Source: a virus
Taxonomy: Duplodnaviria > Caudoviricetes
Reading direction: 5' to 3' (one strand)
Length of the DNA stretch: 64,000 nt
IMG/VR virus record: IMGVR_UViG_3300031992_000018
Location: 104,027-168,026 of that record
How positions within the stretch are numbered: position 1 is the first letter of the stretch; every line of letters starts with the position of its first letter. The translations under genes were made by a program, and so were the position numbers. Below, piece after piece: positions 1,133 to 60,135 of the stretch. A model generated the notes under the pieces. It ran no database searches and was not told the DNA's origin. It worked only from the letters and a program-made list of their open reading frames with translations.

Positions 1133-2020
1133 TTAATCATGATACCATTTAGGAGGATTTTTTTGTAAAGGAGATTCTTTAAACATACGTAGCATATTTG
1201 TAACATTACTTACATTCCACTTTGATATATCCCCATTAAATTTAGAATTTAAAAACATACAATACATATTAGTAACTTTACTTACATCCCAAGATGATAT
1301 ATCTCCATTAAATTCAGTCTTACTAAACATACTTGCCATACTTGTAACATTACTTACATCCCATTTTGATATATCACCATTAAATTTAGAATTATAAAAC
1401 ATACTATTCATACCTGTAACATTGCTTACATTCCAAGATGATATATCACTATTAAAATCAGAATCACAAAACATTGCCGACATATCAGTAACATTACTTA
1501 CATCCCAAGAAGATATATCTCCATTAAATGATGAATAATAAAACATCTGTGACATATCAGTAACATTACTTACATCCCAAGAAGATATATTTCCATTAAA
1601 TAATGAATGATAAAACATAGAAATCATATCTTTAACATTACTTACATCCCAAGATGATATATCACCATTAAATTCAGAACCAGAAAACATTCTTTGCATA
1701 TTAGTAACATTACTTACATCCCAAGATGATATATTTCCATTAAATTTAGAATTATAGAACATACTATCCATATTAGTAACATTACTTACATCCCAAGATG
1801 ATATATTTCCATTAAATTTAGAATTATAGAACATACTATCCATATTAGTAACATTACTTACATCAATATCATTTAAATCAGCCTTATTTCCTCTTTCTTC
1901 AATAAGTTTATCTACTAAAGATTTAAGTTCATCTCTATCTTTAGGTTGATAATTATGTATTGGTTTAATATTTTTATTAAGATGAAGTTTTTCAAATAAG
2001 TAATTATTTAATTCTTTCAT
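1133..2020 (-). CDS. DUF285/BspA-type repeat protein with MK..EKLHLNK leader
   Basis: Nine 24-aa FNGxISxWDVSNVTxMxxMF repeats (72-bp period); N-terminus MKELNNYLFEKLHLNKNIK. Confidence 0.85.
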   Translation of the reverse strand: MKELNNYLFEKLHLNKNIKPIHNYQPKDRDELKSLVDKLIEERGNKADLNDIDVSNVTNMDSMFYNSKFNGNISSWDVSNVTNMDSMFYNSKFNGNISSWDVSNVTNMQRMFSGSEFNGDISSWDVSNVKDMISMFYHSLFNGNISSWDVSNVTDMSQMFYYSSFNGDISSWDVSNVTDMSAMFCDSDFNSDISSWNVSNVTGMNSMFYNSKFNGDISKWDVSNVTSMASMFSKTEFNGDISSWDVSKVTNMYCMFLNSKFNGDISKWNVSNVTNMLRMFKESPLQKNPPKWYHD

Positions 2021-2041
2021 TATATGTATAATATATTATTA

Positions 2042-2054
2042 TATATAAAAATAA
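2042..2054 (-). promoter_or_regulatory. Putative late promoter TTATTTTTATATA
   Basis: Same 13-mer recurs shortly upstream of leader-bearing and structural operons, always in the sense orientation. Confidence 0.65.
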
Positions 2055-2082
2055 AAAAGAGGTTCATTTATTGAACCTCTTT
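2053..2082. terminator. Intrinsic terminator, near-identical copy of 1099-1130
   Basis: aaaaaagaggttca-tttat-tgaacctcttt. Confidence 0.75.
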
Positions 2083-2101
2083 CTATTTATATTTTAGTAA
2101 A

Positions 2102-3473: not shown

Positions 3474-3695
3474 TTATATTTTTGTTTTAATATCTTTAAT
3501 GTCACCAATTTTAATAACAATTGTATTTTCACTACATTTTGCTATTTCCCAATCATCAATTTGATTCCATTCATCAAAATCATCATCATCTGGTCTATGC
3601 CAAAAGAATTTACCTCTTAAATCAACTTCTAAAATATATCCTTTACCATTATTATTTATATTTTCATTTAAAAGGAGTTCAACTAAATTTTTCAT
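3474..3695 (-). CDS. Small leader-bearing protein (MKNLVELLLNE)
   Basis: Shared N-terminal motif; tight operon packing. Confidence 0.65.
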   Translation of the reverse strand: MKNLVELLLNENINNNGKGYILEVDLRGKFFWHRPDDDDFDEWNQIDDWEIAKCSENTIVIKIGDIKDIKTKI

Positions 3696-3719
3696 AATTA
3701 TATTATATATTTATTTATT

Positions 3720-4007
3720 TTATACTTTCCAACCAACTGATGTACCAACAGCAGTAAGTATAAGTCTTGATGTAAATAAACTTCCAAGAGGACCAGTTTC
3801 GTTAATACCAAGAGCCTTACAAATTGCTTTCATAACTTTAGGGCCAAATGTAGCACCAGTAATACCACCAACTATAGATCCTATAATTCCTTCTTCAATT
3901 GGAATATTATTTTCTTTAGCCTCTTGAAGTTTAGCAATTACATTATCATAAGTTAATTCCTCTGTAATAGGAGTTTCAGTATTTATAAAATCTTCTAATT
4001 TTTTCAT
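3720..4007 (-). CDS. Small leader-bearing protein with Gly-rich hydrophobic C-terminal part
   Basis: MKKLEDFINTE...IEEGIIGSIVGGITGATFG. Confidence 0.7.
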   Translation of the reverse strand: MKKLEDFINTETPITEELTYDNVIAKLQEAKENNIPIEEGIIGSIVGGITGATFGPKVMKAICKALGINETGPLGSLFTSRLILTAVGTSVGWKV

Positions 4008-4012: not shown

Positions 4013-4441
4013 TTATTTAATGATTTTATCTATATCAAAATCAAATTCATCTTTATTATCAACTAAATTCTTTATAATTTCATCTTTTGTTCCTATAAAA
4101 ACTTGATTATCTTCTTCAGAATTTCCAGCAATAGCATTTAATCCAGGACGATAAAAAATATAACTTGTTTCATCATATATATTTTTAAAAATTAAATCAC
4201 CAACCTTAGGTTTATTATTACCTTTATCAGCAAAATAATTACTATTATCATATATAAAGTATTCTTCAATAAATTCTTTCATAGAAGAACCTTCTTTAAA
4301 ATCATCATTTGTTAATATATGATAAGGTTCAATCTCTTTAATTAATTTATTTAATTTACTTTGTGCATTGATTTCTTTATAATCAATTATATAATATATA
4401 TCTTTTTTTGTTTCTAAAATATAATCTTTTAAACTTTTCAT
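4013..4441 (-). CDS. Leader-bearing hypothetical protein (MKSLKDYILE)
   Basis: Shared N-terminal motif. Confidence 0.7.
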   Translation of the reverse strand: MKSLKDYILETKKDIYYIIDYKEINAQSKLNKLIKEIEPYHILTNDDFKEGSSMKEFIEEYFIYDNSNYFADKGNNKPKVGDLIFKNIYDETSYIFYRPGLNAIAGNSEEDNQVFIGTKDEIIKNLVDNKDEFDFDIDKIIK

Positions 4442-4461: not shown

Positions 4462-5232
4462 TTATAGTTTTTTACCAAGATTATTTATTGGATGAGGAAA
4501 TTCATTTTTCTTTGCAAGTTCTTCTAAATCTTTTTCATACTTCTCTTTTTCAAAAACAATTGTAAATAAGAAAGTATAAAGATCATCAAGATTATCAATA
4601 GCAACATCAAGTACTTGAGCCCAAGTAATTTCTTTTCTCTTTTCAAGTTTAGTTAAAGTATCTGCTGCATTAAGTAAAGAATTTTTTATAGAACATTCTT
4701 TACCATTAGTACCCATATGTTTAATAGCAAATAATTGAATATCACCATTAGCTCTTAATAAAAGTACAGGTTCTGATAATTTTTCATCTTTACATATAGA
4801 TAATATATCATTTCTTAATTTAGGACTCATACACATATTTCCCATATTAGAACATGGTTCATAAAATACAAGTGGTTCTGAATTGCTTCTTTGATATTCA
4901 TCATTGAATCTGCATTTATAACTAAATTCTCCATGTGCATTATATAAATCCATTACTTTAGGATAACCTGAAAAAATCTGTGTATATTTTGTAACAGGAT
5001 CTAATGGAGTACATGAACTAGGTTCTAAAGTATTTGCACATGGAACGCAAGGATCAACAGTACATGATGCTTCACCAGGAATATCACATCCATAAGAGCA
5101 ACCATCATCACAACATCCACAACATTCAGTTATTTCATATCCTTCAAGATTAGAAAGTTTTTCTACAATATTCTTATCTAATCCCTTTAAACATATATAT
5201 TGATTATTTATATATTCAGATAATTTTTTCAT
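4462..5232 (-). CDS. Leader-bearing protein with Cys-rich segment
   Basis: MKKLSEYINN; ITECCGCCDDGCSYGC...CTVDPCVPC. Confidence 0.7.
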   Translation of the reverse strand: MKKLSEYINNQYICLKGLDKNIVEKLSNLEGYEITECCGCCDDGCSYGCDIPGEASCTVDPCVPCANTLEPSSCTPLDPVTKYTQIFSGYPKVMDLYNAHGEFSYKCRFNDEYQRSNSEPLVFYEPCSNMGNMCMSPKLRNDILSICKDEKLSEPVLLLRANGDIQLFAIKHMGTNGKECSIKNSLLNAADTLTKLEKRKEITWAQVLDVAIDNLDDLYTFLFTIVFEKEKYEKDLEELAKKNEFPHPINNLGKKL

Positions 5233-5283
5233 ATCTTAATATTATATAATTTTCTATTAAACTTTAGAAAATGTAGTAATTCT
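5227..5283 (-). repeat. Diverged copy of the 6385-6440 junction (3' end of the DUF4494-like gene plus start of leader)
   Basis: tttcatatcttaatattatataattttctattaaactttagaaaatgtagtaattct aligns with tttcatatcttatattatataattttccattgagtttcagaaactgtagtgattct. Confidence 0.75.
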
Positions 5284-5286
5284 AAT

Positions 5287-5634
5287 TTATTTTACTAATT
5301 CTAATACTTTAGCTATAACCTTTTTAAAGATTTCACCAGCCTTTTCAGGTTCATTTTTAAATAATTGTAAACAAACTGCACTATGATAAGCATCATATAT
5401 TTTATTATTTATTTCTTTATCCCATTTTGGAGATTCAAAATAAACATCTAAAGCATTCATAGCTACATCATGAATCTTATTTACATCATCATTATTTTTA
5501 ACATCTAAATCTTTAACATCATCATATTGAGATGATAATTCATTAACCGATATTGCTTTATTTTCATTTATATTAAAATCAATATCAATTGTATTTGCAC
5601 TTGCATTGTTTAAATATTCATTTAAGCTTTTCAT
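5287..5634 (-). CDS. Leader-bearing hypothetical protein (MKSLNEYLN)
   Basis: Shared N-terminal motif. Confidence 0.7.
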   Translation of the reverse strand: MKSLNEYLNNASANTIDIDFNINENKAISVNELSSQYDDVKDLDVKNNDDVNKIHDVAMNALDVYFESPKWDKEINNKIYDAYHSAVCLQLFKNEPEKAGEIFKKVIAKVLELVK

Positions 5635-5654
5635 ATCTTTATATTATTTATTTA
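5609..5654 (-). repeat. 46-bp direct repeat of 5839-5884 (one mismatch)
   Basis: tttaaatattcatttaag[c/t]ttttcatatctttatattatttattta. Confidence 0.85.
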
Positions 5655-5864
5655 ATCAAAATATCCACAAGCATCCATTTCATCATAAAGTTCTTCTAAA
5701 GTTTTGTCTGTAAATGTATCCCACAAAAGATTTAAAATTTCTTCTGTATCTAATTTAGAAAAAGCTTTATTCATTTTTTCTTTATAATTATCTCTTTCTG
5801 ATTGAGACCATTCATTAATTACTTGTTCATCAGTATGATTTAAATATTCATTTAAGTTTTTCAT
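5652..5864 (-). CDS. Small leader-bearing protein (MKNLNEYLN)
   Basis: Shared N-terminal motif; VINE site. Confidence 0.7.
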   Translation of the reverse strand: MKNLNEYLNHTDEQVINEWSQSERDNYKEKMNKAFSKLDTEEILNLLWDTFTDKTLEELYDEMDACGYFD

Positions 5865-5906
5865 ATCTTTATATTATTTATTTATATAATTTTCCATTGA
5901 GTTTCA
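5838..5906 (-). repeat. Copy of the 6364-6423 junction
   Basis: 5838-5869 is identical to 6364-6395 (32 nt); 5882-5906 is identical to 6399-6423 (25 nt, the last codons of the 6399..6800 gene). Confidence 0.85.
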
Positions 5907-5910
5907 TAAA

Positions 5911-6390
5911 TTAATCCCAAGCGGCATCATCATATTCTTTTGTTCTTCTTATATTTTTATAACCATTATCAGTATATGAAAGTTTAGTATAAAGATTATT
6001 TATTAATTCATAAATAAATCCATAAGGTTTTCCAGGATCTTTTCTTTCAGAACATTGATACTGCCAACTGTCTAGCCATTTTAATATTTGTACCTCTGAA
6101 ACTTTTTCTTTAGGTTCAGAATATTTAAATGTAGATTTTGCTGCTTCTGATTTTCCATATCTATAACTTATTGCACGACGATTACAATTATATAAATCAT
6201 TTGCAATTGTTTGTTCATCTGCATCATCATACCATTTTATGTATGTTTTAGTAATTTTTGAAAGTAAATCAGATTTATTTATAAATAAGTCATGAATATA
6301 TTTTGCTAATTGATTAATTACTTCATCACTTTCCATAAATGCAGATTCATTAATGAGTGATTCATTTAAATATTCATTTAAGTTTTTCAT
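5911..6390 (-). CDS. Leader-bearing protein (MKNLNEYLNESLINE)
   Basis: Shared N-terminal motif; N..AI..RY and W.YQCSE motifs. Confidence 0.7.
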   Translation of the reverse strand: MKNLNEYLNESLINESAFMESDEVINQLAKYIHDLFINKSDLLSKITKTYIKWYDDADEQTIANDLYNCNRRAISYRYGKSEAAKSTFKYSEPKEKVSEVQILKWLDSWQYQCSERKDPGKPYGFIYELINNLYTKLSYTDNGYKNIRRTKEYDDAAWD

Positions 6391-6398
6391 ATCTTATA

Positions 6399-6812: not shown

Positions 6813-7247
6813 TTATATACTTTCTAAATCTATCCATCCGTATTTGCTACTATCTAATTTATCCTGAATTTTTTCAATAAAATCAATAAAAGAATAAATT
6901 ACATAATCTCTTGATGGATCAAATTCATCATCATCACCTTTATAATATTTAATATCATCTAAATCTGGATAAAGATTATTTATATATTTTTTAAAAATTT
7001 CTATTTCCATTTTTAATTCATCTTCTCTTTCTTTAGATTTATAGTTAGTTTCAAAATCTTCTCTTCTTTGAATACTTAAAAACTCTCCAATAGATTTATC
7101 ATCATTATTTATTATAAAAAATTGTTCACCACTAACACCATTATCGTCATAATGATACTGGAAAACTAATAATTTAATATCATCTATTTTTATATTTTTA
7201 TTAAGATGAAGTTTTTCTGAAATTAAATATTCATTTAAAGTTTTCAT
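6813..7247 (-). CDS. Leader-bearing protein (MKTLNEYLISEKLHLNK)
   Basis: Shared extended N-terminal motif. Confidence 0.7.
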   Translation of the reverse strand: MKTLNEYLISEKLHLNKNIKIDDIKLLVFQYHYDDNGVSGEQFFIINNDDKSIGEFLSIQRREDFETNYKSKEREDELKMEIEIFKKYINNLYPDLDDIKYYKGDDDEFDPSRDYVIYSFIDFIEKIQDKLDSSKYGWIDLESI

Positions 7248-7254: not shown

Positions 7255-7587
7255 TTATTTATTTATTTCATTATATCTTTCAATTATATCTAATAGTAAT
7301 TGTTTATTAGATATTGGATAAAACATTCTATCAATATAGATTCCAATAATATCTTTTGGTGCTGCAATATCTAATTCTTTATCAATCATATTTATTGTAT
7401 ACCATGAATAATCATTTCCTTCTTTTAAAAGAATTTTAGGTAATTGATCAGAATTACTTTTATTTGCATCATATCTATTTGTTCTATCGATTACTTTTTT
7501 ACATGCTTCATCTTTTTCTAAAATAGATTTTACAAATGCAAAAAAAGAATTTTTTCCTTCAGTTATATATTCATTTAAATTCTTCAT
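7255..7587 (-). CDS. Leader-bearing protein (MKNLNEYITE)
   Basis: Shared motif; late promoter at 7606-7618. Confidence 0.7.
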   Translation of the reverse strand: MKNLNEYITEGKNSFFAFVKSILEKDEACKKVIDRTNRYDANKSNSDQLPKILLKEGNDYSWYTINMIDKELDIAAPKDIIGIYIDRMFYPISNKQLLLDIIERYNEINK

Positions 7588-7678: not shown

Positions 7679-7876
7679 ATGAAAAAAATATTTGTTTTAA
7701 TTATATCATTACTTTGTTTATTTGGTTGTTCTTCACAAGAAAGAGGTTCTAATGGAATTTCTGTTGAAAAGTTTACTTATGAACAACATGACTATTTGAT
7801 GTTTTACACAATAACTGGTCATTTTACTGGAGTAGAACATGATCCAAATTGTTGGTGTATGAATGATTATGATTAA
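7679..7876 (+). CDS. Small lipoprotein
   Basis: Start moved to MKKIFVLIISLLCLFGC, a signal peptide with lipobox. Confidence 0.65.
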   Translation: MKKIFVLIISLLCLFGCSSQERGSNGISVEKFTYEQHDYLMFYTITGHFTGVEHDPNCWCMNDYD

Positions 7877-8712: not shown

Positions 8713-9126
8713 TTATTTTAGTAATTTATTAAATTCTGATTTAGAAACTTTAGTAAAATTATCAAAATTTTGTGCCCAATCATAACAAACCTTTTCATAA
8801 TTATCACCTGTTAAATCTCCACCTTCTAAAGAAAATGTAAAAGATTTAACATTATCAATAAATACATCCATATCTTCCCATGAACCTTCACCAAATCCAA
8901 CTTCGCCATCATATTTATCTAAATATGTATGTAATTTACCAACAATTTCTTGTCCTTTTAATTTACCAAAATTAAAAATAATTACAGCATCACGCATTGT
9001 AACATAATAACATGTATCAGGCCAGTCATAAGTATCTGTATTTTTTAACCATTTATTTATAAATTCAAATACTTCTTTTTCAGATAATGTTTTTGCTTCT
9101 AATAAAAATTCTACTAGATTTTTCAT
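8713..9126 (-). CDS. Leader-bearing protein (MKNLVEFLLE)
   Basis: Shared motif. Confidence 0.7.
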   Translation of the reverse strand: MKNLVEFLLEAKTLSEKEVFEFINKWLKNTDTYDWPDTCYYVTMRDAVIIFNFGKLKGQEIVGKLHTYLDKYDGEVGFGEGSWEDMDVFIDNVKSFTFSLEGGDLTGDNYEKVCYDWAQNFDNFTKVSKSEFNKLLK

Positions 9127-9147: not shown

Positions 9148-9534
9148 TTAATCCAAGTGATCAAAAGCTACTGGTTCACCATTCCAATAATAACAATATG
9201 TATATTTATCTAATTTTACATCTCCAAATTTATTTATTCTTGCTCTCTTTTCTTCTGTTTCTTTTGTATCAAATTCATCAGGAATTGGAACTGATTTACC
9301 AGCTTGACCATTACCAGATACAATTTTATCTTTTAATTTTCTAAAAGTAAATGTTTTACCACTAATTTTAACTATTTTATAAAAATCAATTATAATCATA
9401 CTATAACTAAAATTAGAATAAATAATATCACCTACTTCCCAATTTTCTGGTTTTGATTTATCTCTTTCTTCAACAGTTTCAATATCTTTATTAAGATGTA
9501 ATTTTTCTATTATATATTTATCTAATTGTTTCAT
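9148..9534 (-). CDS. Leader-bearing protein (MKQLDKYIIEKLHLNK) with a small beta-rich domain
   Basis: Start moved to MKQL; WEVGDII...FYKIVKISGK domain. Confidence 0.7.
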   Translation of the reverse strand: MKQLDKYIIEKLHLNKDIETVEERDKSKPENWEVGDIIYSNFSYSMIIIDFYKIVKISGKTFTFRKLKDKIVSGNGQAGKSVPIPDEFDTKETEEKRARINKFGDVKLDKYTYCYYWNGEPVAFDHLD

Positions 9535-9544: not shown

Positions 9545-11053
9545 TTAATATTTATGTCCTCCTCTTGCATATTGAAGTCTCATTTGTTCTTCAATCATTG
9601 ATTCTGCATCTTCATCAGTAAAATCAGGATCATCATCACAAGCAGTAAATATCTTTGCACAAAGAACAAATGTTCTTAATGATAATTCCATACTTGATCC
9701 TTTTTCATTTAATTCTTTTAAATAATTATAAGCCTTTATTTTTGCTTTAGGCAATAATATTTTATTTTCAATATTTGGAAGTAATTTCTTTATAATTGAT
9801 AAAATCTCATCATTTGAAAAATCAATATCTTGCATAAAACATCTATTTCTTAAAGCTGTATCAAGTTGTCCTGCACGATAATTTGTTATAACAATAACAC
9901 CAGATTTAATTCTACATTTCTTTGGAATTTCTTGACCGTCATCATCAGTAATTTTACCAGCAATTCCATAAGTAACAAGTCTTCCTTCTGGAGATGTATC
10001 TGAATCAAGAGCTGCTTTAAGAATATTGATACAGTTTTCATCTGCTTGTGGACCTACAAGAGAGTCAGCATCATCAATTAAAATAATATCATTACTTTCT
10101 CTAAATCCATAAAGAGTAGCATAAAGTCTTCTTGCTGTACATTTGCCTTTTATAGTACAAAGATTTTCTCCTTCAATATAATTAGATTCTTTAAGTTGTT
10201 TCTTTACTCTATATGTTTTACCAACACCAGGAGCTCCACAAAGAATAAGTGCTGGTTGACGACCTTTAATAACTAAAGAAATATATTTTTCCATTTCTTT
10301 AAATATCTGGTCAGGATCTTTTCTATTACTTTGAGCATCTTTAATTTCCTTAGAATCTTCAATTTCAACTCTTTTACCTTTAGCAATTGATACTTTAATA
10401 TCTTCTGAACCACCTTCTTTTATATATTTATAAATATCTTTAACATCATTTTCGATATTATTTAAATTAGAGTTTGAAATTTTACTCTTAGCAATAAATG
10501 ATTCATGAATTAAATCTTTATCAATTTTAGAAAAAATATAATTTAATTTACCAATATTATATTTAGATTCTTTTAAATTATCTTCTTTATTAGATAATTT
10601 TTTAACATCTTCTTCACTAATAGAATATTTTTTAGAATTTACTATTGTCCATACTACTGGTAATAATTTAGCTATATTTGTACCTAAAGTATAAATAGAT
10701 AAATCTGCTTTTCCTTTACCAGACCAATATACATCTAAATCTTTAAAAAAGTCTATAGAATATACATCTACAGAATCATTATCATTAATCCAATTAAATT
10801 GAAAAAATGAAGTTTTAGCATAATCTGATTTATCAATAACAATAAATTGTTTTGATGTACATTTTTCACCATCAATTGTAGTATCTACAAAACCAATAAG
10901 AGGAACAAGACCATTGATATGCTTCTTTAAAATTGATTCAATTTTTTCAATAGCCGCATCAATATCTTTTTCTCTAAATGATTCATTTAATTTTTCTTTA
11001 TTTTGTATATCTTGATTACGCTTATTTACGAATTCTAAAAAATTATATCTCAT
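9545..11053 (-). CDS. AAA+ ATPase
   Basis: Walker A GAPGVGKT, Walker B IILIDDAD, sensor ITN, ALRNR arginine finger; late promoter 11072-11084. Confidence 0.8.
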   Translation of the reverse strand: MRYNFLEFVNKRNQDIQNKEKLNESFREKDIDAAIEKIESILKKHINGLVPLIGFVDTTIDGEKCTSKQFIVIDKSDYAKTSFFQFNWINDNDSVDVYSIDFFKDLDVYWSGKGKADLSIYTLGTNIAKLLPVVWTIVNSKKYSISEEDVKKLSNKEDNLKESKYNIGKLNYIFSKIDKDLIHESFIAKSKISNSNLNNIENDVKDIYKYIKEGGSEDIKVSIAKGKRVEIEDSKEIKDAQSNRKDPDQIFKEMEKYISLVIKGRQPALILCGAPGVGKTYRVKKQLKESNYIEGENLCTIKGKCTARRLYATLYGFRESNDIILIDDADSLVGPQADENCINILKAALDSDTSPEGRLVTYGIAGKITDDDGQEIPKKCRIKSGVIVITNYRAGQLDTALRNRCFMQDIDFSNDEILSIIKKLLPNIENKILLPKAKIKAYNYLKELNEKGSSMELSLRTFVLCAKIFTACDDDPDFTDEDAESMIEEQMRLQYARGGHKY

Positions 11054-11089: not shown

Positions 11090-12784
11090 TTAAATCCATA
11101 TAATTGTTATAGGATCTATCTTTATAAATGAATTTTTATTTGGTTTATCTGTATAATAGTTAAATCCTCCTCCAAGTATTGGAATTTCTAATTTTGAATT
11201 TAATGATATATTTCCATAATTGTCAAGTCCTGGATTTGTATCACTTTCATAATATATCTTTTTATTTACTAAGTTATATTGACCATTTATATATTCAAAA
11301 TTAGAAGTATAATAAAATCCTCTATAAAATGTTTCTTCACTAAGTTCTGATATTATATCTATATCAAATGATTCAATATCATCATGACAAAGAGAACCAA
11401 TATTAATTAAATCACTCTTAGCAATAAATTTTGAATCCTCTTTCAAATTCATAAAATAATTACCTAATACAGATTTTATAGAATCTTCAATATCTTGTTT
11501 AGAATATTGTGATTTTGTTTTAACATAACACATAATAGCAAATCTTCTAATTTCAGGATCTTGGAATTTAAGTGTTATACCAGCAAATGATTTATTTGAA
11601 TTCTTAAGAGTATTTTGAATCATTAATTTTTGGTCATTTGTAATTAAAATACCTTGATTATTATTTGCTTTATTAGTTAATTTATAGTATTCATCTATAG
11701 AAGATATATTATTTATTATATTAGATATACATGTAGCATATATAGTCATACTATTTTCTTCACTCCAACAATTTACATATCCAACAAATGAGAATCTTTT
11801 AAAGAATAATTTAAAGTTTTGTTCAGAAGCAATGACATTACTTCTAGAATTATATCCAATCATATTTCTTACAAAATCAATTGAATCAGAATTTGTACCA
11901 CCAGAAATTACTGTATTAAGATTAAGTAATAAATAGTCATCTAAGTTAACTGTATTTCCTTCTGAATCATATCCATTATCAACAAATGAAAATTTAGGAT
12001 TATCACCATATAAAATATTTCCTATAGTTCCTGAATGTGATAAATATAATATTTGTACTACATCACCAGGATTTGGAATTTTACCATATATACCATTACC
12101 AAATATTATATCAAATGTATTTTCATATCCAACAGTAAGAACATATTCTTTACTGTCTTTTGACATATCATATAAACTTGAAACAGGTTCCCATTCTTCT
12201 CCATTTACAAATACTCTTATATAATCTCTGTCAAAAAGACCAGATGATTCAATAGATATTCTTTCAAGAGGTTCACCAATACAACCATATTGATAATTAT
12301 TCCATGTTCCTTGTACAATTTTAAATTCATGAGATGTAAGTGGTTGCTTTGTATAAATTATATATCTATTTGAATTCAATATAACAACATAGTTTACACC
12401 AGTATTCTTATTGATTATTCTTGTATAATTATTAATATAAATTTTATCAATATCAAGATATGAACCATTATTCATTATAACTTTACCAATAATACTTCCA
12501 CTTGCAGCTGATCCATAATATGGTTCATAACCACTGATTTTAGCTAATGAATAAATACTTTTTCTTCTTGTAGCAGTTCTGACATTTTGTTCTGTAAGAG
12601 CATCTTCAATATAGAACATAGCATTTTGCATGATACCTTTAATACCATCAAAGATAACACCAAAAATTTGGTTATGAGTATATTGATAACCAATTGAATT
12701 AAATGTTTTTGAAAGATATAGTCTTACTGTTTCATCAAACTGATCATAAGCAGTTTGCATTACTGAAAATAATTTATTAGCCAT
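11090..12784 (-). CDS. Baseplate wedge subunit (T4 gp6-like)
   Basis: TATRRKSIYSLAKISGY, IIFGNGIYGKIP..GD.V.I.YL...G..GN, GGTNSDSID motifs. Confidence 0.85.
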   Translation of the reverse strand: MANKLFSVMQTAYDQFDETVRLYLSKTFNSIGYQYTHNQIFGVIFDGIKGIMQNAMFYIEDALTEQNVRTATRRKSIYSLAKISGYEPYYGSAASGSIIGKVIMNNGSYLDIDKIYINNYTRIINKNTGVNYVVILNSNRYIIYTKQPLTSHEFKIVQGTWNNYQYGCIGEPLERISIESSGLFDRDYIRVFVNGEEWEPVSSLYDMSKDSKEYVLTVGYENTFDIIFGNGIYGKIPNPGDVVQILYLSHSGTIGNILYGDNPKFSFVDNGYDSEGNTVNLDDYLLLNLNTVISGGTNSDSIDFVRNMIGYNSRSNVIASEQNFKLFFKRFSFVGYVNCWSEENSMTIYATCISNIINNISSIDEYYKLTNKANNNQGILITNDQKLMIQNTLKNSNKSFAGITLKFQDPEIRRFAIMCYVKTKSQYSKQDIEDSIKSVLGNYFMNLKEDSKFIAKSDLINIGSLCHDDIESFDIDIISELSEETFYRGFYYTSNFEYINGQYNLVNKKIYYESDTNPGLDNYGNISLNSKLEIPILGGGFNYYTDKPNKNSFIKIDPITIIWI

Positions 12785-15067: not shown

Positions 15068-15910
15068 ATGAAAACATTTTCAAATTACATTGATAATATA
15101 AAATTAATTGATGAAATTTGTTCTTATGAATATAGTGATGTAGTTCTTGAAGGAATATTAAAGAAAATAGCTAATTGGTTTGGTAATAAATCAAGAAATA
15201 TATCTAATAAATTAAATAATTTTTATGATGAATTATATTATTTTCCAGATAATGTAATAAAGACATTTAATGGAACATTATCAATTGCAGCAGATGAAAC
15301 TAATGATTCACAAGAAAATAAAGATATTATAAATAACATTATTAATGATAAACCAGAAAATATACCAGAAAAAGTTATAAATTATCTTAAAGAACATGAA
15401 AATGATAAAGATTTTTATAATTCAATACTTATTGCTTCATTATGTGTATTAGGTATAAATGTAGCAAATGAAAATAAAGATCAAAAATCAGTAGATACTA
15501 TAAAATTATATTTTAATAAAATTAGTGATAAAATAAAGGAAGATACTAAAGATATTTTAAAAAAATCTACAAATAATCCAGATAATAATGATAATGATAA
15601 TGATAATAATCCTTCAGAAGATCTTACTAAAAAAGTTGATGATGTAGTACAAAATGTAGTAGATGATAATCCAGATATAGATATTAATAAAGAAAAAGAA
15701 AGAGAATTAATAGAAACAATAACTTGGATGATTTTTTATAAATATAATAAAAATAATATGAATTCAGACGAAATTGAAGATAATGCCAAGAGACTTGCTA
15801 ATATATTAATAAATGAATTAGAATTAGATGATGATTTAAAACAGAAATTTAATATAACTTCATTAGATGATTTAAAACAGAAAATTGAAGATTATAAAAA
15901 CAATAAATAA
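15068..15910 (+). CDS. Leader-bearing protein (MKTFSNYID...VLEGILKKIANWF)
   Basis: Late promoter on + strand at 15035-15047; leader-like N-terminus. Confidence 0.7.
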   Translation: MKTFSNYIDNIKLIDEICSYEYSDVVLEGILKKIANWFGNKSRNISNKLNNFYDELYYFPDNVIKTFNGTLSIAADETNDSQENKDIINNIINDKPENIPEKVINYLKEHENDKDFYNSILIASLCVLGINVANENKDQKSVDTIKLYFNKISDKIKEDTKDILKKSTNNPDNNDNDNDNNPSEDLTKKVDDVVQNVVDDNPDIDINKEKERELIETITWMIFYKYNKNNMNSDEIEDNAKRLANILINELELDDDLKQKFNITSLDDLKQKIEDYKNNK

Positions 15911-16366: not shown

Positions 16367-16705
16367 TTATTTATTTTTAAATTCTATGTCATGTATATAT
16401 ATTGTTGTAAGATCATCTTCATCAAAGGTTATAAAAAAACTATCTATATAATCATTATCAAAAAATTTCTTTTTTATCTCTTTAATACAACTATGTAAAA
16501 AAGATGATGATTTTTCTTTTTTAAATTTTATATATAACCATTTATCATCATCTATAATAAATGTATAATCATCATCTTTATATAAAAATTCTCCATCAAA
16601 ATAAGATTCTAGATCAAATAATAGTTTATCCATATTATCTGATTTTACATTTATATTTTTATTAAGATGTAATTTTTCTGTTATATATTGACTTAAATTA
16701 TTCAT
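16367..16705 (-). CDS. Leader-bearing protein (MNNLSQYITEKLHLNK)
   Basis: Extended motif; late-promoter variant 16726-16738. Confidence 0.7.
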   Translation of the reverse strand: MNNLSQYITEKLHLNKNINVKSDNMDKLLFDLESYFDGEFLYKDDDYTFIIDDDKWLYIKFKKEKSSSFLHSCIKEIKKKFFDNDYIDSFFITFDEDDLTTIYIHDIEFKNK

Positions 16706-16772: not shown

Positions 16773-17459
16773 ATGAAAACAATTAATGAATATATTAGAT
16801 TTTCAGTTAATAATATAAACTATAATATTATTGACGAAGCATTAGCTCTTGAATCAGAAGGATGGACAATGCAAGATGTTTATGAGACATTATTTATAAC
16901 TGATATTTATGATAATGATCAATTAAATGAAGGTTGGATTGGTGATAAACTTAGAAAATTAGCTGGTGCGGCTGATACTGCAGAAGATAAAGCAAAAGAA
17001 ACAATAAATAAAACAAAAGAAGGTATTAAAAATGCTAAAGATGCAGTTGTTGCAAAATTTGATGAATGGTCAAATGAAGCAAAAGAAGCATTCAATAATT
17101 TAAAGAAATGGGCCGGAAGTAAATGGGATAAAGTTAAAAAAGATATAACTGAAATAATTGGAAAAATTGAAGCAGCATTTAATAAAATAAAAGATACAAT
17201 AAAAAATATTGTTGTTTCTATTGGTAAACTTAGTAAAGATATTGTTTTAACAACAGTAGGTCTTTTAATTTTATTAGTAAAACAAATAATAGCATTGATT
17301 GATAAAGGTTCAGATTTAGTTATGAAATTATTTAATGATGCAAAATTATTTGCTGGTAATGCAATATTTAATTTAGGTGCTGTTGCCGCTAAGAAAGCTG
17401 GTTTATCTCAAGAAGAATTAACAAATGTTTTAACTTTAACATTTTCTTATGCAAAATAA
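16773..17459 (+). CDS. Leader-bearing helical protein with hydrophobic C-terminal part
   Basis: MKTINEYI...LNEGWIGDKLRKL; late promoter 16741-16753; amphipathic helical repeats. Confidence 0.7.
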   Translation: MKTINEYIRFSVNNINYNIIDEALALESEGWTMQDVYETLFITDIYDNDQLNEGWIGDKLRKLAGAADTAEDKAKETINKTKEGIKNAKDAVVAKFDEWSNEAKEAFNNLKKWAGSKWDKVKKDITEIIGKIEAAFNKIKDTIKNIVVSIGKLSKDIVLTTVGLLILLVKQIIALIDKGSDLVMKLFNDAKLFAGNAIFNLGAVAAKKAGLSQEELTNVLTLTFSYAK

Positions 17460-17478: not shown

Positions 17479-17510
17479 AAAAAGAGCTCTTTTTAAAGAG
17501 CTCTTTTTTT
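17479..17510. terminator. Bidirectional terminator
   Basis: aaaaagagctctt-tta-aagagctcttttt. Confidence 0.75.
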
Positions 17511-19170
17511 ATTTTTCTTCTCTACTATGTTTATTGTATTCTGATGAATGAAATTCTTCTTCAAAAGTATGTTTAGCACCAGGATTAATCATATAAGCCA
17601 TTTTTGCCATTATATCTCTATTAAGAAGAACTGGTGTTGATTTCTTTCTATTATCAACAAGAGCAAAATCTACATTAAGTAATTTTCTTGAACCAATCTG
17701 AATACAAGGTACTATTACAGTAACTCTTTCTTCACGTACTTGTCCAACTATAGGGTTTGAAACCCCACTTTTCTTAAATCTATATGTTTTACCATTTATA
17801 ACTGCTGATACTTTATCTCCAACTACTTCAACTGATTCACAACCAATTGTAGAAGCTTTAGCGCCATTACCTGTATCAAATTTAGCTTCAAGTTCAAATT
17901 CTGAATCATTATCCATAATAAACTTCATATTTTCAATATAACCAATTGATTTAGGTGCAAGTACAAGCTCATTAATATCATTGATTGCATCAAGAAGTAT
18001 CTTACAGAAATTTTCTCCAATTACTTCAGAAATACCTTCTGTACCTGGAGAGCAGTTATATTCAAGAACAACATTATCTCCAATCTCTGGATTAGAACCT
18101 TTTACAAGAGGCATAATATCAACAGCACACCAAGGCATACCTGAAATCTTTGCTACATTTAATGCAATATCTTCTTGTTCTTTAGTAATTTCAACTTTTT
18201 CAGCTTCTGCACCAAGAGATACATTACTTCTGAAATCACCACCAAGTTTCTTTCTCTTCATACATGCAAGAATTGTTTGTTTTGTTCTGCTTGTAAGAAC
18301 ATGCACTCTGATATCACCACCATCAGCTTCTTCTTTCTTTTGAAGAAGTAATTCTCTTTCAGGGTCAATAGCAAATATTGCTTGAAGAATTGCAAGAATA
18401 CCTTTACCTGTTGTCATGAATACACCTGTTCCACCATGACCATCAAGAATCTTTACAACATATTCTCTCTTTTCATCTTCTTCTTTATTTTCACCTACTT
18501 CTTTATAAATAAGTTTAAGTTTCTTCTGAAGAGATTCTTCACCTTTAGATACATCTTTTGAAGAAAGAAGACAGAATTTTGGTTGTGGAATATCATATCT
18601 TTTCATAAGAACAGCTGAAGCATATTTATTACTTGCTCTTTTAGCTGCTTGAATTGGATTAAGAACAAAAAGACCCCAATCTTGAAGTTCTTTAATACAT
18701 TCCATACATTCTTCACTATCTTGTGCACCAAGACGTGCAATAACTATTGTATCTATATTTGATTGATCTGTTATAGTAAATTTCTCTTTAGAATCTTTAA
18801 TTTCAATTTTCTTATCATCTGCACTATAATCAACTTCTTCAGAAACAAATGTTATAAGATTTACATCTGTATTTTTAAGTGCATCTTGAAGGTTTTTAAG
18901 AGTTTTATTTTTTGAAGCATCTCTTTCATTTGTAAAGAAGATAATATTCTTAAAGAAATATTCTTCATTTCTTTTTATTTTTTCAGCATTCTGTACAGTA
19001 TCATTTTTTGCACCTAATTGTTCAGCTGCTTGATCAACTGCTTGGTCTTCTGAACCAGGTTTTTCTGGATTTTTTTCTGCACCAGTATTTTCTTCTGCTT
19101 CTAAAATAGATTCTACTTCATCTATTGATTTAATAAATTTTGATTCTAAAAGTTCAGTTAAAGTTTTCAT
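17509..19170 (-). CDS. rimK: RimK-like ATP-grasp ligase fused to a C-terminal retropepsin-like (RimB-type) protease, with leader
   Basis: NKY, VVKILDGHGGTGV, GDIRVHV, FRSNVSLG, VDI, LEYNCSPG; C-terminal AKFDTGN...VLLNR. Confidence 0.8.
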   Translation of the reverse strand: MKTLTELLESKFIKSIDEVESILEAEENTGAEKNPEKPGSEDQAVDQAAEQLGAKNDTVQNAEKIKRNEEYFFKNIIFFTNERDASKNKTLKNLQDALKNTDVNLITFVSEEVDYSADDKKIEIKDSKEKFTITDQSNIDTIVIARLGAQDSEECMECIKELQDWGLFVLNPIQAAKRASNKYASAVLMKRYDIPQPKFCLLSSKDVSKGEESLQKKLKLIYKEVGENKEEDEKREYVVKILDGHGGTGVFMTTGKGILAILQAIFAIDPERELLLQKKEEADGGDIRVHVLTSRTKQTILACMKRKKLGGDFRSNVSLGAEAEKVEITKEQEDIALNVAKISGMPWCAVDIMPLVKGSNPEIGDNVVLEYNCSPGTEGISEVIGENFCKILLDAINDINELVLAPKSIGYIENMKFIMDNDSEFELEAKFDTGNGAKASTIGCESVEVVGDKVSAVINGKTYRFKKSGVSNPIVGQVREERVTVIVPCIQIGSRKLLNVDFALVDNRKKSTPVLLNRDIMAKMAYMINPGAKHTFEEEFHSSEYNKHSREEK

Positions 19171-39281: not shown

Positions 39282-39309
39282 AAGGAGAGAATTAATTCTC
39301 TCCTTTTTT
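39280..39309. terminator. Bidirectional terminator
   Basis: aaaaggagagaat-ta-attctctcctttt. Confidence 0.75.
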
Positions 39310-39708
39310 GTCATTTTCTTGTCCCATTGGTGGAGTATCTACTTCTGTATTAGGAATGCCATTTAATGCATGTTGATAATCATAAGATACTTTATTAAAT
39401 AAGTTAAAGTTTGTAATAAAATGTTCAATTATCTTAGTAAATAAATAAATATAATCTACACTAATTGCTTCATCTCTTTTTACATCTTCATCAAAGAAAT
39501 CTACAAACTTTTTAATTTTAAACTTAGGATTTTCTGCTAAAAATTTTTCAACATCATCTTTTTGAACAAGTTTTCTTTGTCCACATATAGTTATAAAATT
39601 TAACATTGGTTTTAAATATTCTTTATCATTTTTAAACCATACATCAAATTTATAAGCGAAATTATCTACATCAAGACATTCTTTTATATATTCTTTAATA
39701 TTCTTCAT
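39292..39708 (-). CDS. Leader-bearing protein (MKNIKEYIKE)
   Basis: Shared motif. Confidence 0.7.
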   Translation of the reverse strand: MKNIKEYIKECLDVDNFAYKFDVWFKNDKEYLKPMLNFITICGQRKLVQKDDVEKFLAENPKFKIKKFVDFFDEDVKRDEAISVDYIYLFTKIIEHFITNFNLFNKVSYDYQHALNGIPNTEVDTPPMGQENDKKGEN

Positions 39709-39710: not shown

Positions 39711-40322
39711 TTAAATACTATAATATCCTTTTAAATTTTCTACAGATTTTATTGTAATTTCATTACTCTTTAATTGAGATATTAAACGTTTATCTTTTAT
39801 TAAGATATCACTGTTTATTTCTTTTAATGCAGATACAATATCACCATAATTAATAACATATTTATAAACAGTTAAATCTTCAAATAAAAATACTACAGGA
39901 ACATCTTTTGCATTTTCATCAGTATATGTAATACCAATCAATGTACAAGATTCTGTTAATTCATCAGTTTTAAATACTGATGTCAACCATGTATATTTAT
40001 CATTTATTTCTCCATGTTCAGGATGAGTTTTTAGATCTTCTTTTACTTTATAAAAACCAACCTTTTGATTATCATCATTTTGAGAATTAGATATAATCTT
40101 TTTTAAGATTTTTGTATTTTCAACAGGTTTAATAATTACATTATCAGAAGTAAACTTATTTATATACTTAACTTTTTCTTTTTCATTATAATCAGAAGAA
40201 GTTGCATCATATTCCTTCTTATTTGATTTACCTGTTAACCATTCCCAAAAACCTTTAAACCAATCACTTATAACTCCTTCTTCAACTAATTGTTCTTGAA
40301 TGTATTCATTTAAATGTTTCAT
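39711..40322 (-). CDS. Leader-bearing protein (MKHLNEYIQEQLVEE-GVISDWFKGFWEWL)
   Basis: Shared motif followed by amphipathic helix. Confidence 0.7.
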   Translation of the reverse strand: MKHLNEYIQEQLVEEGVISDWFKGFWEWLTGKSNKKEYDATSSDYNEKEKVKYINKFTSDNVIIKPVENTKILKKIISNSQNDDNQKVGFYKVKEDLKTHPEHGEINDKYTWLTSVFKTDELTESCTLIGITYTDENAKDVPVVFLFEDLTVYKYVINYGDIVSALKEINSDILIKDKRLISQLKSNEITIKSVENLKGYYSI

Positions 40323-40954
40323 ATATTATATATTAATATTTCTTTATTTTCTTGTGATGTTTTAAATTTAAGTTTATTTAAATTTCCTTTTAATTTTGGA
40401 TGTAAATTTTTTGCAGTAAAACCTTTTATATTACTATTTTCTTTTTTACATATATCAATATATTGTTTTAATATTGTTTCATTTACTTCTGTTGGATTAT
40501 CTACAATAAGATTAGATTCAATATCTACAATATGTCTATAATTTTCTATATATGTAGAAGTATTATCAACCATTAATAAAGCAATAGAATAAGTTCTTTT
40601 TCCATCCTCATCTTGAGAAAAAAATGTATAAACTAATGGATCTATTGGATTATTATTTATATCAACTAATAACTTTTTTTGGTTATTTATAATATTTGTA
40701 GCAACAACATATCCTAATTTATTATGTTTCCATTCATTTAAAGTATCATTATCAATTTCACTGAATTTTACTGGTTCTTTTGCAAATTTTATAGTTTTAG
40801 TATTAACTTCATACATTTCAACATTATTACCATTTAATCTTGATTGTTGACTTTTAAATACCTTTTTAAAAAATGCTTTAAACCAATCTAATAAACCCTC
40901 ATTTAAATATTTATTTTCAGCAAAATTATAATAATATTCTTTAATTTGTTTCAT
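40319..40954 (-). CDS. Leader-bearing protein (MKQIKEY...LNE-GLLDWFKAFFKKVF)
   Basis: Shared motif followed by amphipathic helix; late promoter 40976-40988. Confidence 0.7.
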   Translation of the reverse strand: MKQIKEYYYNFAENKYLNEGLLDWFKAFFKKVFKSQQSRLNGNNVEMYEVNTKTIKFAKEPVKFSEIDNDTLNEWKHNKLGYVVATNIINNQKKLLVDINNNPIDPLVYTFFSQDEDGKRTYSIALLMVDNTSTYIENYRHIVDIESNLIVDNPTEVNETILKQYIDICKKENSNIKGFTAKNLHPKLKGNLNKLKFKTSQENKEILIYNI

Positions 40955-47135: not shown

Positions 47136-47136
47136 T

Positions 47137-47751: not shown

Positions 47752-47756
47752 AGATT

Positions 47757-48062: not shown

Positions 48063-48063
48063 T

Positions 48064-48474: not shown

Positions 48475-48476
48475 TT

Positions 48477-48674: not shown

Positions 48675-48686
48675 AAAAATATTTAT

Positions 48687-57681: not shown

Positions 57682-57713
57682 AAACAGGAACTAATCATTA
57701 GTTCCTGTTTTTT
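57680..57713. terminator. Bidirectional terminator
   Basis: aaaaacaggaactaa-tca-ttagttcctgttttt. Confidence 0.8.
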
Positions 57714-58596
57714 TATATTCTATTTGTTTAGCATCATCATCTATTTTTATAAACATTTCTGCTTGTTTTTTCATTTTCTCTCCATTTTTACCAGATAAAT
57801 CTTTTTTAACTTTAGGTAAATCTATTGGTTGTTTTTCTTTTAAAAATGAATCAACCATTTTTTCTTGATCAAATATAAATTTACCTTCTGAGTCTTTTTT
57901 AATTTTTATTACTGGAGAAGTTTTATATTTACCACCTTGTATTCTACCATATCCAGCTGAATAACCAATCCATACTGTATCAATAAAATTATTAAAGTGA
58001 GGATATTTATTATTTAATAAATCTGTCAATGTTTTATATGCAGCTTTATGATTAGGTATTAAAACTGTTTCTTCATCAACATATCTATCTCTTACTCTAT
58101 TATTTATTTTAGCAACTTCTAAATTACAAAGAACCCAAACAAGAGTTACATTATATCCAAGAGTTTTGGCACGTGTTGCAATTTCAGTAATATCTTCTAT
58201 TTTACCAGATACTCTATCAAAAAGAAGATTAGGAAGAATTTTTGAATTATTAGCTTCTTTATTTGGATTTTGTTTATTTCTAAATATCAAATTAATCTGT
58301 TTATCTTTCCAACCATGATCTTTAACTCTCATATGAAGTTCTGTAACATCTTCTGGATTTTTAAAATCAAAGTTTTTTAATTCATCTTTAAGTTTACCTT
58401 GATTTAAAAGTTTTATATATTTGCCTTTTAAATCATCAACATCATATGTTTTAAAATCAGCATCTATAATATTTTTTATAAATCCTTTTCCACTTCCAGG
58501 TCCACCAGCAAGAATAATACATTCACCATAAGTTGGTGTTTTCTTCTTAAAACCAACTACAGTATTTTCAAATATAAAATCTAATAATTTTTTCAT
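57691..58596 (-). CDS. Leader-bearing P-loop kinase (zeta-toxin/AAA_33-like)
   Basis: MKKLLDFIFE; ILAGGPGSGKG, DVDD, LLFD, LGY...LVWV....VA...N..R.R. Confidence 0.75.
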   Translation of the reverse strand: MKKLLDFIFENTVVGFKKKTPTYGECIILAGGPGSGKGFIKNIIDADFKTYDVDDLKGKYIKLLNQGKLKDELKNFDFKNPEDVTELHMRVKDHGWKDKQINLIFRNKQNPNKEANNSKILPNLLFDRVSGKIEDITEIATRAKTLGYNVTLVWVLCNLEVAKINNRVRDRYVDEETVLIPNHKAAYKTLTDLLNNKYPHFNNFIDTVWIGYSAGYGRIQGGKYKTSPVIKIKKDSEGKFIFDQEKMVDSFLKEKQPIDLPKVKKDLSGKNGEKMKKQAEMFIKIDDDAKQIEYKKTGTND

Positions 58597-58603
58597 ATAT
58601 TAA

Positions 58604-59074
58604 TTATCTTTTTTTTCTAAATACAATTACAATTACACTTGTAAAATTTGAATAATAAATAAATTCATTATTATCTGTTTCAAATGTTGAACCTAAACTA
58701 GTTGTTTCTTCAGATAATCTTGCTTTTATATATTTATACCAATTTGGAGATGTTATATAATTTCTATAATAATTTTTTATTACATCTTCATCAGTAATTG
58801 TAACAAATTTATCTAATTTTTTCTTTTTTATTGCTGCCCATATATGTTTATCCATATATAGTTTATCATTAATTAGACATTCAACTTCTTCTATTGATTC
58901 AATTTCATTTTTTCTTACCCAATCTTCAAAAGATTTTAAAATATCTTTAATCATTGATTGATCAAGATTTAAACAACAAATATCTGTCATTATTGAAACA
59001 ACAGTATTTTTTAAATTTTTATTATCCTTTGTCAAATGTAACTTTTCAAATATATATGAATTAATCTTCTTCAT
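58604..59074 (-). CDS. Leader-bearing protein (MKKINSYIFEKLHLTK)
   Basis: Extended motif. Confidence 0.7.
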   Translation of the reverse strand: MKKINSYIFEKLHLTKDNKNLKNTVVSIMTDICCLNLDQSMIKDILKSFEDWVRKNEIESIEEVECLINDKLYMDKHIWAAIKKKKLDKFVTITDEDVIKNYYRNYITSPNWYKYIKARLSEETTSLGSTFETDNNEFIYYSNFTSVIVIVFRKKR

Positions 59075-59465
59075 TTTTCTTAATTAAATAATCTATATAT
59101 TTATTACCATATCTTTTTCCTTTTTCTGGTAAAAAACTACCCTTTCTTATATATAAAGTATTTGATGAATTAATATTTTCTTTATCAATAAGATCTTTTA
59201 TATCAAGAGTAATTTTTTTAAATCTATCTTCAGTAAGATTACTTGAAAATTCTAATCTTAAAAAATTAGCATCTCCCCAATCACTTCTTGTATATAAAGA
59301 TTGTTTTTGAATATCTAATAATTCTATAGTATAATTTAATTTTGACTTTGAAAAATATTCTTTAATAACATCTTTTATAATATTAAATATATCATTATTA
59401 AAAGAATTTTTTATATTCTTATTTAAATGTAATTTCTCTATTATATATTGACTTAAACTATTCAT
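59061..59465 (-). CDS. Leader-bearing protein (MNSLSQYIIEKLHLNK)
   Basis: Extended motif. Confidence 0.7.
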   Translation of the reverse strand: MNSLSQYIIEKLHLNKNIKNSFNNDIFNIIKDVIKEYFSKSKLNYTIELLDIQKQSLYTRSDWGDANFLRLEFSSNLTEDRFKKITLDIKDLIDKENINSSNTLYIRKGSFLPEKGKRYGNKYIDYLIKKNEED

Positions 59466-60135
59466 GATACCAAGAAGGTGGATTTTTTTCTAAAGGACAA
59501 TTATTAAACATAAAACCCATATCAGTAACATTACTTACATCCCATTTAGATATATCTCCATTAAATTTTGATTTAGTAAACATATCAGACATACTTTTAA
59601 CATTACTTACATCCCATTTAGATATATCTCCATTAAATTCAGATTTATAAAACATATCAGACATACTATTAACATTACTTACATCCCATTTAGATATATC
59701 ATTATTAAATTGAGAATATTGAAACATTTTTTCCATATTAGTAACATTACTTACATCCCAATTAGATATATCTTGATTAAATTTAGACTCGGAAAACATA
59801 CTTTTCATATTAGTAACCTTGCTTACATCCCATTTTGATATATCTCCATTAAATGGAGAATATTCAAATATATGACTCATATCAGTAACATTACTTACAT
59901 CCCATTTTGATATATCTCCATTAAAATTAATATTTTGTAATATACAGAACATATCAGTAATTTCACTAACATCAATATCATTTAAATCAGCATCATTTCC
60001 TCTTTCTTCAATTAACTTCTTAATTAAAGATCTAAGTTCATCTCTATCTTTAGGATGATAATGATATACTACTTTTTTAATATTATCTCTATTTAAATGT
60101 AACTTTTCTAATATATATGTATTAAGTTCTTTCAT
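59458..60135 (-). CDS. DUF285/BspA-type repeat protein with MK..EKLHLNR leader; paralogue of 1133..2020
   Basis: Six 24-aa repeats; start moved to MKEL; late promoter 60156-60168. Confidence 0.85.
   Translation of the reverse strand: MKELNTYILEKLHLNRDNIKKVVYHYHPKDRDELRSLIKKLIEERGNDADLNDIDVSEITDMFCILQNINFNGDISKWDVSNVTDMSHIFEYSPFNGDISKWDVSKVTNMKSMFSESKFNQDISNWDVSNVTNMEKMFQYSQFNNDISKWDVSNVNSMSDMFYKSEFNGDISKWDVSNVKSMSDMFTKSKFNGDISKWDVSNVTDMGFMFNNCPLEKNPPSWYHE

Follow-up and report, generated by a model that had tools for sequence, protein, structure and literature searches.

A T4-like N-terminal leader common to many unrelated proteins of a giant phage from the sheep gut

Leader genes in the window

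The final 64 kb of the IMG/VR phage contig IMGVR_UViG_3300031992_000018 (this 64,000-nucleotide stretch is called the window here) carries a series of genes whose otherwise unrelated products begin with a common short leader resembling the capsid-targeting sequence (CTS) of phage T4. The contig, G000 below, is linear, 168,026 bp long and 25% GC. It belongs to an uncultured giant phage from sheep gut (rumen lineage), and its source DNA is present in sheep gut metagenomes from several studies. Within the window the leader follows the pattern M-[K/N]-x-[L/I/F]-x-x-[Y/F/L]-[I/L], then usually x-E. The first-pass annotation had listed 23 such starts and a weak 24th; all 23 have the ATG and the N-terminus described for them, and an independent gene call recovered the same 23 genes among 95 in the window. 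The starts at 9534, 16705 and 60135 are the second Met of the longest open reading frame (ORF), and the gene spacing is sensible for each.

A minus-strand run extends from 14970 down to 1133, and its leader genes lie directly downstream of baseplate genes. It contains a gene for a baseplate wedge subunit (11090..12784; phrog_219, E=8e-31), and the run was therefore assigned to the virion-gene (late) class. Between the baseplate genes and the leader genes lies a co-transcribed gene for an AAA ATPase of 502 aa (9545..11053). This is the weak 24th member: a weak leader-like start can be seen, but its membership is doubtful. The true start Met of the gene that follows is at 9534, 10 nt past the ATPase stop, and it opens a 128-aa protein with an extended leader (9148..9534). 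Downstream, and again all on the minus strand, are genes for a 137-aa protein with an orphan body (8713..9126), a 110-aa protein that heads a unit with TTATTTTTAT 20 nt upstream (7255..7587), a 144-aa protein whose extended leader has an EKLHLNK spacer (6813..7247) and a 159-aa protein with an orphan body (5911..6390). Two shorter proteins have an I-N-E downstream of the leader, ending at residue 18 in one (70 aa, 5652..5864) and at residue 24 in the other (115 aa, 5287..5634). The run continues with a 256-aa protein with an orphan body, in which the first Φ-x-E after the leader ends at residue 24 (4462..5232), and with a further orphan of 142 aa (4013..4441). The next protein, of 95 aa (3720..4007), is like T4 IPI in having no Glu-10 and a later I-T-E, which ends at residue 16 here and at residue 19 in IPI. 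Last come a 73-aa orphan whose L-x-E ends at residue 11 (3474..3695) and a 295-aa protein with a DUF285 repeat body (E=3e-121), an extended leader and the EKLHLNK spacer (1133..2020), with TTATTTTTAT 23 nt upstream.

Four leader-type genes lie just beyond this run. A 280-aa protein with an orphan body and an I-D-E ending at residue 16 is encoded on the plus strand (15068..15910), with its own motif 34 nt upstream. It is followed by a 112-aa protein with an extended leader on the minus strand (16367..16705), and by a 228-aa protein on the plus strand (16773..17459) that has a coiled-coil body, weak tape-measure-like matches and one membrane-like segment. The fourth, on the minus strand, encodes a RimK-type ATP-grasp enzyme of 553 aa with a weak leader that has Leu at position 7 (17509..19170). 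Farther along, on the minus strand, are genes for proteins of 138 aa (39292..39708) and 203 aa (39711..40322), both with orphan bodies, and for a unit-heading protein of 211 aa (40319..40954) with a weaker leader and an L-N-E ending at residue 19; its homologue in a relative, G001, likewise bears the leader. The last minus-strand unit, 60135-57691, is headed by a gene for a 225-aa DUF285 protein with an extended leader (59458..60135). It continues with genes for two further proteins with extended leaders, one of 134 aa with close orthologues in other assemblies (59061..59465) and one of 156 aa (58604..59074), and with that for a 301-aa protein with a zeta-toxin-like P-loop body (57691..58596).

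The promoter-like motif TTATTTTTAT lies 20-35 nt upstream of the portal gene, of the baseplate-wedge operons and of 11 leader-gene unit heads. One copy stands at 60157..60168 on the minus strand, and other copies in the window start at 2043, 7607, 11073, 14991, 15035(+), 16727, 16741(+), 19195 and 40977. When each gene was assigned to the nearest upstream motif on its strand, 28 leader genes fell in TTATTTTTAT units and none in TTGAAT-N16-TATATT units, compared with 63 and 43 of the other genes (Fisher p = 5.5e-6), which bears out the promoter split proposed in the first pass. Nine leader genes have no unit assignment, four of which are behind the motif at 60157. Because this motif is common to leader units, portal and baseplate operons, we infer that the leader genes are expressed with the late (virion) genes. 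The array was matched in metatranscriptome runs, a signal that could reflect DNA carry-over.

The leader and the proteins that carry it

A strict pattern applied to the whole of G000, M-[K/N]-x-[L/I/F]-x-[polar]-[Y/F/L]-[I/L/Y], is found in 35 of the 215 predicted genes; two near-matches bring the total to 37, about one gene in six (~17%). The number of members first reported, and the contrast drawn there with the three internal proteins of T4, are right, and the whole genome exceeds that number. A GC content of 25% favours K, N, I, L, Y, F and E, and AT-rich N-termini might be supposed to produce such a motif by chance. The controls exclude a chance origin. No match occurs at 803 internal Met positions, for which the frequency of the Met-less pattern inside proteins predicts 0.2; when residues 2-12 of each N-terminus are shuffled, 0.34 matches are obtained on average and 3 at most, whereas 32 are observed at offset 0; one of 351 discarded non-gene ORFs has the pattern; and the reversed pattern gives 0 in every relative. 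The leader stands far above the internal-Met, shuffle and non-gene ORF backgrounds, and we give a compositional artefact practically no weight.

Glu-10 was left out of the search pattern, and it is found in 22 of 34 leader proteins in G000, 21 of 22 in G001 and 9 of 12 in a second relative, G002. Position 4 is L/I/F and position 7 is Y/F/L in all members, partly by construction of the pattern, and likewise in G001, G002 and Chryseobacterium phage MA9V-1; besides Met-1 and Lys-2, the most conserved positions are 4, 7, 8 and 10. An [LIV]-x-E ends at residues 9-11 in 28 of the 37 leaders, and eight of the other nine have one that ends at 12-26, in the manner of IPI, compared with only 45 of 178 non-leader proteins (p = 1.9e-4). 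Right after Glu-10, ~10 G000 genes have a spacer, E-K-L-[H/K/R]-[L/I]-x-K, that also occurs in L011, L017, L145, L146 and G001, and that is optional on homologous bodies. Leader genes differ in their upstream DNA, and the codon changes at positions 4, 7 and 8 are non-synonymous but encode similar residues, which argues that selection on the leader acts at the peptide level and not through a copied DNA cassette. The genes starting at 5634 and 5864 (window 5206-6441) have near-identical spacer-plus-start DNA in common, which suggests a cassette duplication or a recombination through the leader region there.

A two-component mixture model of all N-termini picked out the leader as its strongest signal but divided the gene set too finely, and its memberships were discarded. 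A secretion or membrane signal was rejected because no hydrophobic stretch is present in the leader and a membrane-like segment occurs in a single member.

The bodies behind the leader are unrelated, as had been claimed: with the first 22 residues removed, BLASTP sorts 36 leader proteins into 34 families, and the sole cluster is the expected exception, the DUF285 paralogues, with two members in the window and three in the genome. Recognisable bodies are DUF285 repeats, an AAA_33 kinase, the zeta-toxin-like P-loop protein and the RimK-type ATP-grasp enzyme, and one leader-bearing protein is a restriction-type nuclease-helicase-methylase of 1331 aa; most others are orphans. In the leader-bearing kinase, the Pfam AAA_33 match begins at residue 16. 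The density of internal [LIV]-x-E is no higher in leader proteins than in other proteins, and T4 gp22 has 20 such sites. PHROGs assigned no function to eight of ten orphan cargo proteins, and a protein atlas search with two of them (4462..5232 and 15068..15910) gave no usable match. With the first 40 residues of an extended-leader protein as query, homology search found close orthologues only, a word-index search being unsuited to a 10-residue tag.

Leaders in T4 and in related phages

In the T4 record, IPII and IPIII begin MKTYQEFIAE; IPI has the same first seven positions, no Glu-10 and an I-T-E at 19, and gp24 starts with ten similar residues that end in Glu. All four proteins have N-terminal propeptides of 10-20 residues that are removed by gp21 (PMC5694885). 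A position-weight matrix trained solely on the G000 leaders was applied to 69 predicted genes of a 50-kb T4 segment, and its top four were gp24, IPIII, IPII and IPI (7.3 to 2.8), with the next gene at -5.8 and the median at -20.6. In the IPIII tag, according to mutagenesis, residues 4 and 7 serve targeting, residues 8 and 10 serve processing, and an Asp at position 10 blocks cleavage while targeting is kept (PMC9026906). The G000 leader shares with the T4 CTS its N-terminal position, its length of ~10 residues, Lys-2, a hydrophobic or aromatic side chain at positions 4 and 7, Ile/Leu-8, and Glu-10 or, as in IPI, a later I-x-E. It differs in that position 4 is mostly Leu/Ile in G000 and Tyr/Phe in T4, and in the optional conserved EKLxLxK spacer. 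Numbers differ as well, with at least 35 tagged genes on a partial genome as against three internal proteins plus Alt in T4. As with T4 internal proteins, the tag sits on unrelated, fast-evolving bodies in variable loci.

G000 encodes the large terminase TerL and a T4 gp20-type portal (phrog_213, E=3e-71), which has tblastn matches in >2,000 T4-type phages among others. By portal, the nearest named relatives are Sphingomonas/Sphingobacterium phage PAU, Tenacibaculum phages PTm1/PTm5, Chryseobacterium phages MA9V-1/2 and the Lak phages; PAU is the closest cultured one (34% identity, 82% of the query covered). CheckV estimates the completeness of G000 at 59%; G001 is 83% and G002 100% complete. 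An ortholog of the 59061-59465 protein, 78% identical, lies on a 458,778-bp contig (P0001), so this lineage may have a complete genome much larger than the ~285 kb implied by the CheckV value for G000.

The leader exists in lineage-specific versions. Searched with a strict DNA pattern, G001 shows 23 leader starts and G002 shows 11 (reversed-pattern control, 0); by gene, G001 has 22-24, and G002 (L091-L102) has ~12 with the Y-I-x-E leader besides ~22 with a second one, M-K-S-L-x-E-S-L-F-D-K-D-L, which has Asp at position 10 (examples at G002 genome 144442-146639 and 230143-234211). G003, with a portal 42% identical, has 25 genes that start M-K-N-[I/L]-[P/Q]-T-F-[E/D]-[E/D]-F-[I/V]-N-E, the T4 core lengthened by three residues after Lys-2. 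In PAU, 18 genes start M-K-[T/S]-[L/I]-x-x-L-[Y/F]-E (control, 0), and they mostly surround the portal-protease-capsid cluster and include genes labelled by the depositor as scaffold gp152, internal capsid gp142 and gp154. The PAU leader differs from that of G000 in being one residue shorter, with a cleavable L-Y-E at 7-9, and its members are fewer and more clustered; the literature searched yielded neither an analysis nor proteomics of these PAU genes. MA9V-1, whose paper shows an SDS-PAGE gel only, has two genes with such a leader, both beside the portal gene, and two DNA patterns tried on PTm1 found no leader family. Across lineages of 25-37% GC the peptide pattern is kept with different codons. 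Bodies and leaders are also exchanged: the AAA_33 kinase has a leader in G000, and its G002 homologue begins at the P-loop, while homologous DUF285 bodies have a Y-I-x-E leader in G000 and G001 and an ESLFD leader in G002.

This plasticity is seen right after the portal gene, the position of core genes 67 and 68 in T4. In G000 this slot holds a gene for a 147-aa leader protein, whose family is present in six of ten genomes of the sub-clade (G000 and five of nine close relatives) and absent in four; in other sub-clades, one to three unrelated leader genes take its place. The slot (genome 17852-20122, L001/L002, and L009-L029; empty in some close relatives) is a hypervariable insertion site for leader genes, similar to the plastic internal-protein loci of T-even phages (PMC3012670, PMC9026906). 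The same body occurs in this family with a bare 10-residue leader or with the leader followed by an EKL[K/R][I/L]xKDSK spacer. An AlphaFold model (pTM 0.76) has residues 1-17 unstructured and the rest as an α/β domain, for which Foldseek found nothing significant in PDB or BFVD.

The first-pass annotation had proposed locating a gp21-like protease, and the result was mixed: none is present on G000, but Peptidase_S77/phrog_207 proteins occur in leader-bearing relatives. G002, which has a portal 57% identical to that of G000, encodes an S77/phrog_207 protease fused to a long C-terminal region, and a scaffold-like C-terminal extension of the protease ORF is seen in relatives, a difference from T4. 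L146 comes from the same sample as relatives with portals 83-86% identical; its protease ORF and major head protein gene are preceded, at a distance of a few genes, by extended-leader genes, of which one has a DUF285 body. In L145, the genes for protease and capsid have a leader gene between them. PAU also has a gp21-type protease. The likeness to T4 includes a gp20-type portal in G000 and a gp21-type protease in relatives, and because the G000 contig has neither protease nor capsid gene, a protease in this phage is predicted from those relatives. The protease and capsid proteins of PTm1, G002 and G003 found no homologue in G000 or G001 when used as queries, and no scaffold gene was identified on G000. 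A complex prediction of the G002 protease/scaffold ORF with G002 leader N-termini scored 0.00, which is evidence neither for nor against binding.

Other phages also load proteins into their heads. In phiKZ and SPN3US, many head-internal proteins are cut after x-x-Glu by a gp21-related protease and are co-injected with the DNA (PMC5694885, PMC13282480), but those proteins have propeptides ~80-130 residues long and no common short tag, and several of them are paralogues, whereas here one short tag precedes unrelated bodies. The leader is 10-18 residues long and the fold of the body starts near residue 17, unlike the long propeptides of the phiKZ type. The N-terminal signal of phage P1 DarB is sufficient to send a reporter into the capsid (PMC9024508); compared by description only, it differs in that ~30 residues are needed and no processing of this kind is reported. 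Among such proteins, a 2026 review of jumbo phages covers phiKZ inner-body proteins only, and our literature search found no giant or uncultured phage described as having dozens of genes with a short common tag.

Roles of the leader and other genes of the contig

In the reading we favour, and consider probable though well short of certain, the leader is a T4-type propeptide for capsid targeting and processing, carried by a greatly expanded set of cargo proteins. The leader genes would be transcribed together with the virion genes, and each protein would attach to the scaffolding core of the assembling prohead by its flexible leader of ~10 residues, in which positions 4 and 7 are hydrophobic or aromatic. 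The core in this phage group would be built around the fused gp21-type protease/scaffold protein, beside the gp20-type portal. Cleavage by this protease would follow the Glu of [L/I]-x-E, either at residue 10 or, for roughly one member in four, at 12-26; the mature protein would thereby be freed inside the head and expelled with the DNA at the next infection. A tag this modular, with unrelated bodies, body swaps and lineage co-variation, could allow almost any protein to be recruited as virion cargo. The T4-type leader proposed in the first pass held up in all computational tests that were run; the effector role given to these proteins there is an assumption, and some of them may be degraded core or scaffold components.

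Several observations weigh against this reading. The chain from tag to packaging, cleavage and injection is drawn wholly by analogy, and neither G000 nor G001, at their estimated completeness, contains a gp21-type protease or a major capsid gene. The mature leader proteins are mostly acidic (median pI 4.9), compared with the basic, DNA-associated internal proteins of T4. A tagged share of ~17% of genes, some of them for very large proteins, is far beyond documented sets of capsid cargo. The EKL[H/K/R][L/I]xK spacer is unexplained by simple cleavage at Glu-10. The scaffold and internal capsid labels in PAU are depositor annotation that profile search did not confirm (PHROGs gave no function). 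Lastly, some pattern matches are doubtful, among them the RimK-like enzyme, a 407-aa protein and the AAA ATPase; the RimK-like enzyme is probably a false positive, because its homologues in G001 and G002 have no leader.

The leader could also target proteins to the prohead core while most of the tagged proteins are core, scaffold or inner-body material and not delivered effectors. The T4 core proteins gp22, gp67, gp68 and gp21 do have Φ-x-E sites near their N-termini (T4 record; PMC5694885), a gene in scaffold position in PAU carries the PAU leader, one window member has a coiled-coil, tape-measure-like body, and an acidic pI is closer to that of scaffold than to that of T4 internal proteins. 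Against this, the 34 unrelated families include the AAA_33 kinase, the zeta-like P-loop protein, the nuclease-helicase-methylase and DUF285 proteins, the presence of members varies among close relatives, and internal [LIV]-x-E sites are not enriched as they are in gp22; we think a mainly structural role unlikely. A somewhat different proposal takes the leader as a tag with no relation to the capsid, for instance one recognised by a phage chaperone or protease for timed activation or turnover in the cytoplasm, or one docking onto another late structure. Encapsidation is argued by analogy, a flexible amphipathic peptide could bind many partners, and the conserved EKLxLxK spacer hints at an extra function. 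The position-by-position match to the mapped T4 tag, a matrix that recognises T4 gp21 substrates exclusively, the clustering of leader genes beside portal, protease and capsid genes in several lineages and the co-occurrence of the leader with gp21-type proteases all speak for the capsid, and make such a tag quite improbable.

The peptide might instead be a by-product of a nucleic-acid element, either a translation-initiation enhancer or a patch of homology for cassette shuffling. G000 has no Shine-Dalgarno sites, the leader codons are A/T-rich, and recombination through the leader probably occurs, given that some neighbours have near-identical DNA at the spacer and start. Such an element would not be expected to leave upstream DNA that differs widely between genes, non-synonymous changes at positions 4, 7 and 8, or one peptide written with other codons across lineages; highly expressed structural genes have no leader, and the downstream pattern of cleavage sites has no explanation at the RNA level. 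This account is very improbable.

Both the T4 tag and the variable nature of internal-protein loci in T-even phages are well known (PMC3012670, PMC9026906). What appears new here is the use of the T4 logic on a scale about tenfold larger, in lineage-specific versions and possibly with a second, uncleaved class of tag. If the capsid-targeting reading is correct, giant gut phages would inject dozens of pre-made proteins with their DNA, a set that would include kinases, a zeta-toxin-like enzyme, DUF285 repeat proteins, a restriction-type nuclease-helicase-methylase and many orphans, and this would change how early host takeover and counter-defence are seen in such phages. A simple sequence rule would then predict injected proteins across a large uncultured clade, and the orphan leader genes would be the first candidates for anti-defence activity. 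Versions of the tag paired with their own protease and scaffold genes would be a natural data set on tag recognition, which is unsettled even in T4, and the tags could extend T4-style protein packaging tools to Bacteroidota phages.

A broader proposal, which we put forward as speculative and rather doubtful, is that short lineage-specific tags are a general cargo-loading code in uncultured giant phages with T4-type heads, present on 10-17% of genes, with at least two tag classes in one genome that would sort processed from unprocessed cargo. One class would be the cleavable type with Glu-10; the ESLFD type would be possibly uncleaved because Asp-10 in T4 allows targeting without cleavage. Were there such a code, the virion would carry dozens of enzymes and repeat proteins into the host, and sequence alone would suffice to predict which phage proteins are injected.

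The host of G000 is probably a member of the Bacteroidota, because the genes lack Shine-Dalgarno sites; several G000 genes also have Bacteroidota-style lipoprotein signals. Exported phage proteins with signal or lipoprotein peptides of this style are encoded on the plus strand at 27860-28963, 7679-7876 and 43169-43807, and one of the three has an OmpA-family C-terminal domain. At 19902-24945 (plus strand), a full-length carbamoyl-phosphate synthase large chain (1073 aa) is followed by a NodU/CmcH-type carbamoyltransferase (592 aa), a pair that is unusual for a phage and probably belongs to a pathway that modifies DNA or nucleotides. A different N-terminal motif, M-K-x-Q-I-R ... F-E-T-N-S-S-S, is found on four adjacent paralogues of 231, 204, 136 and 157 aa, which are encoded on the plus strand at 46440-49160, among genes that have no leader.

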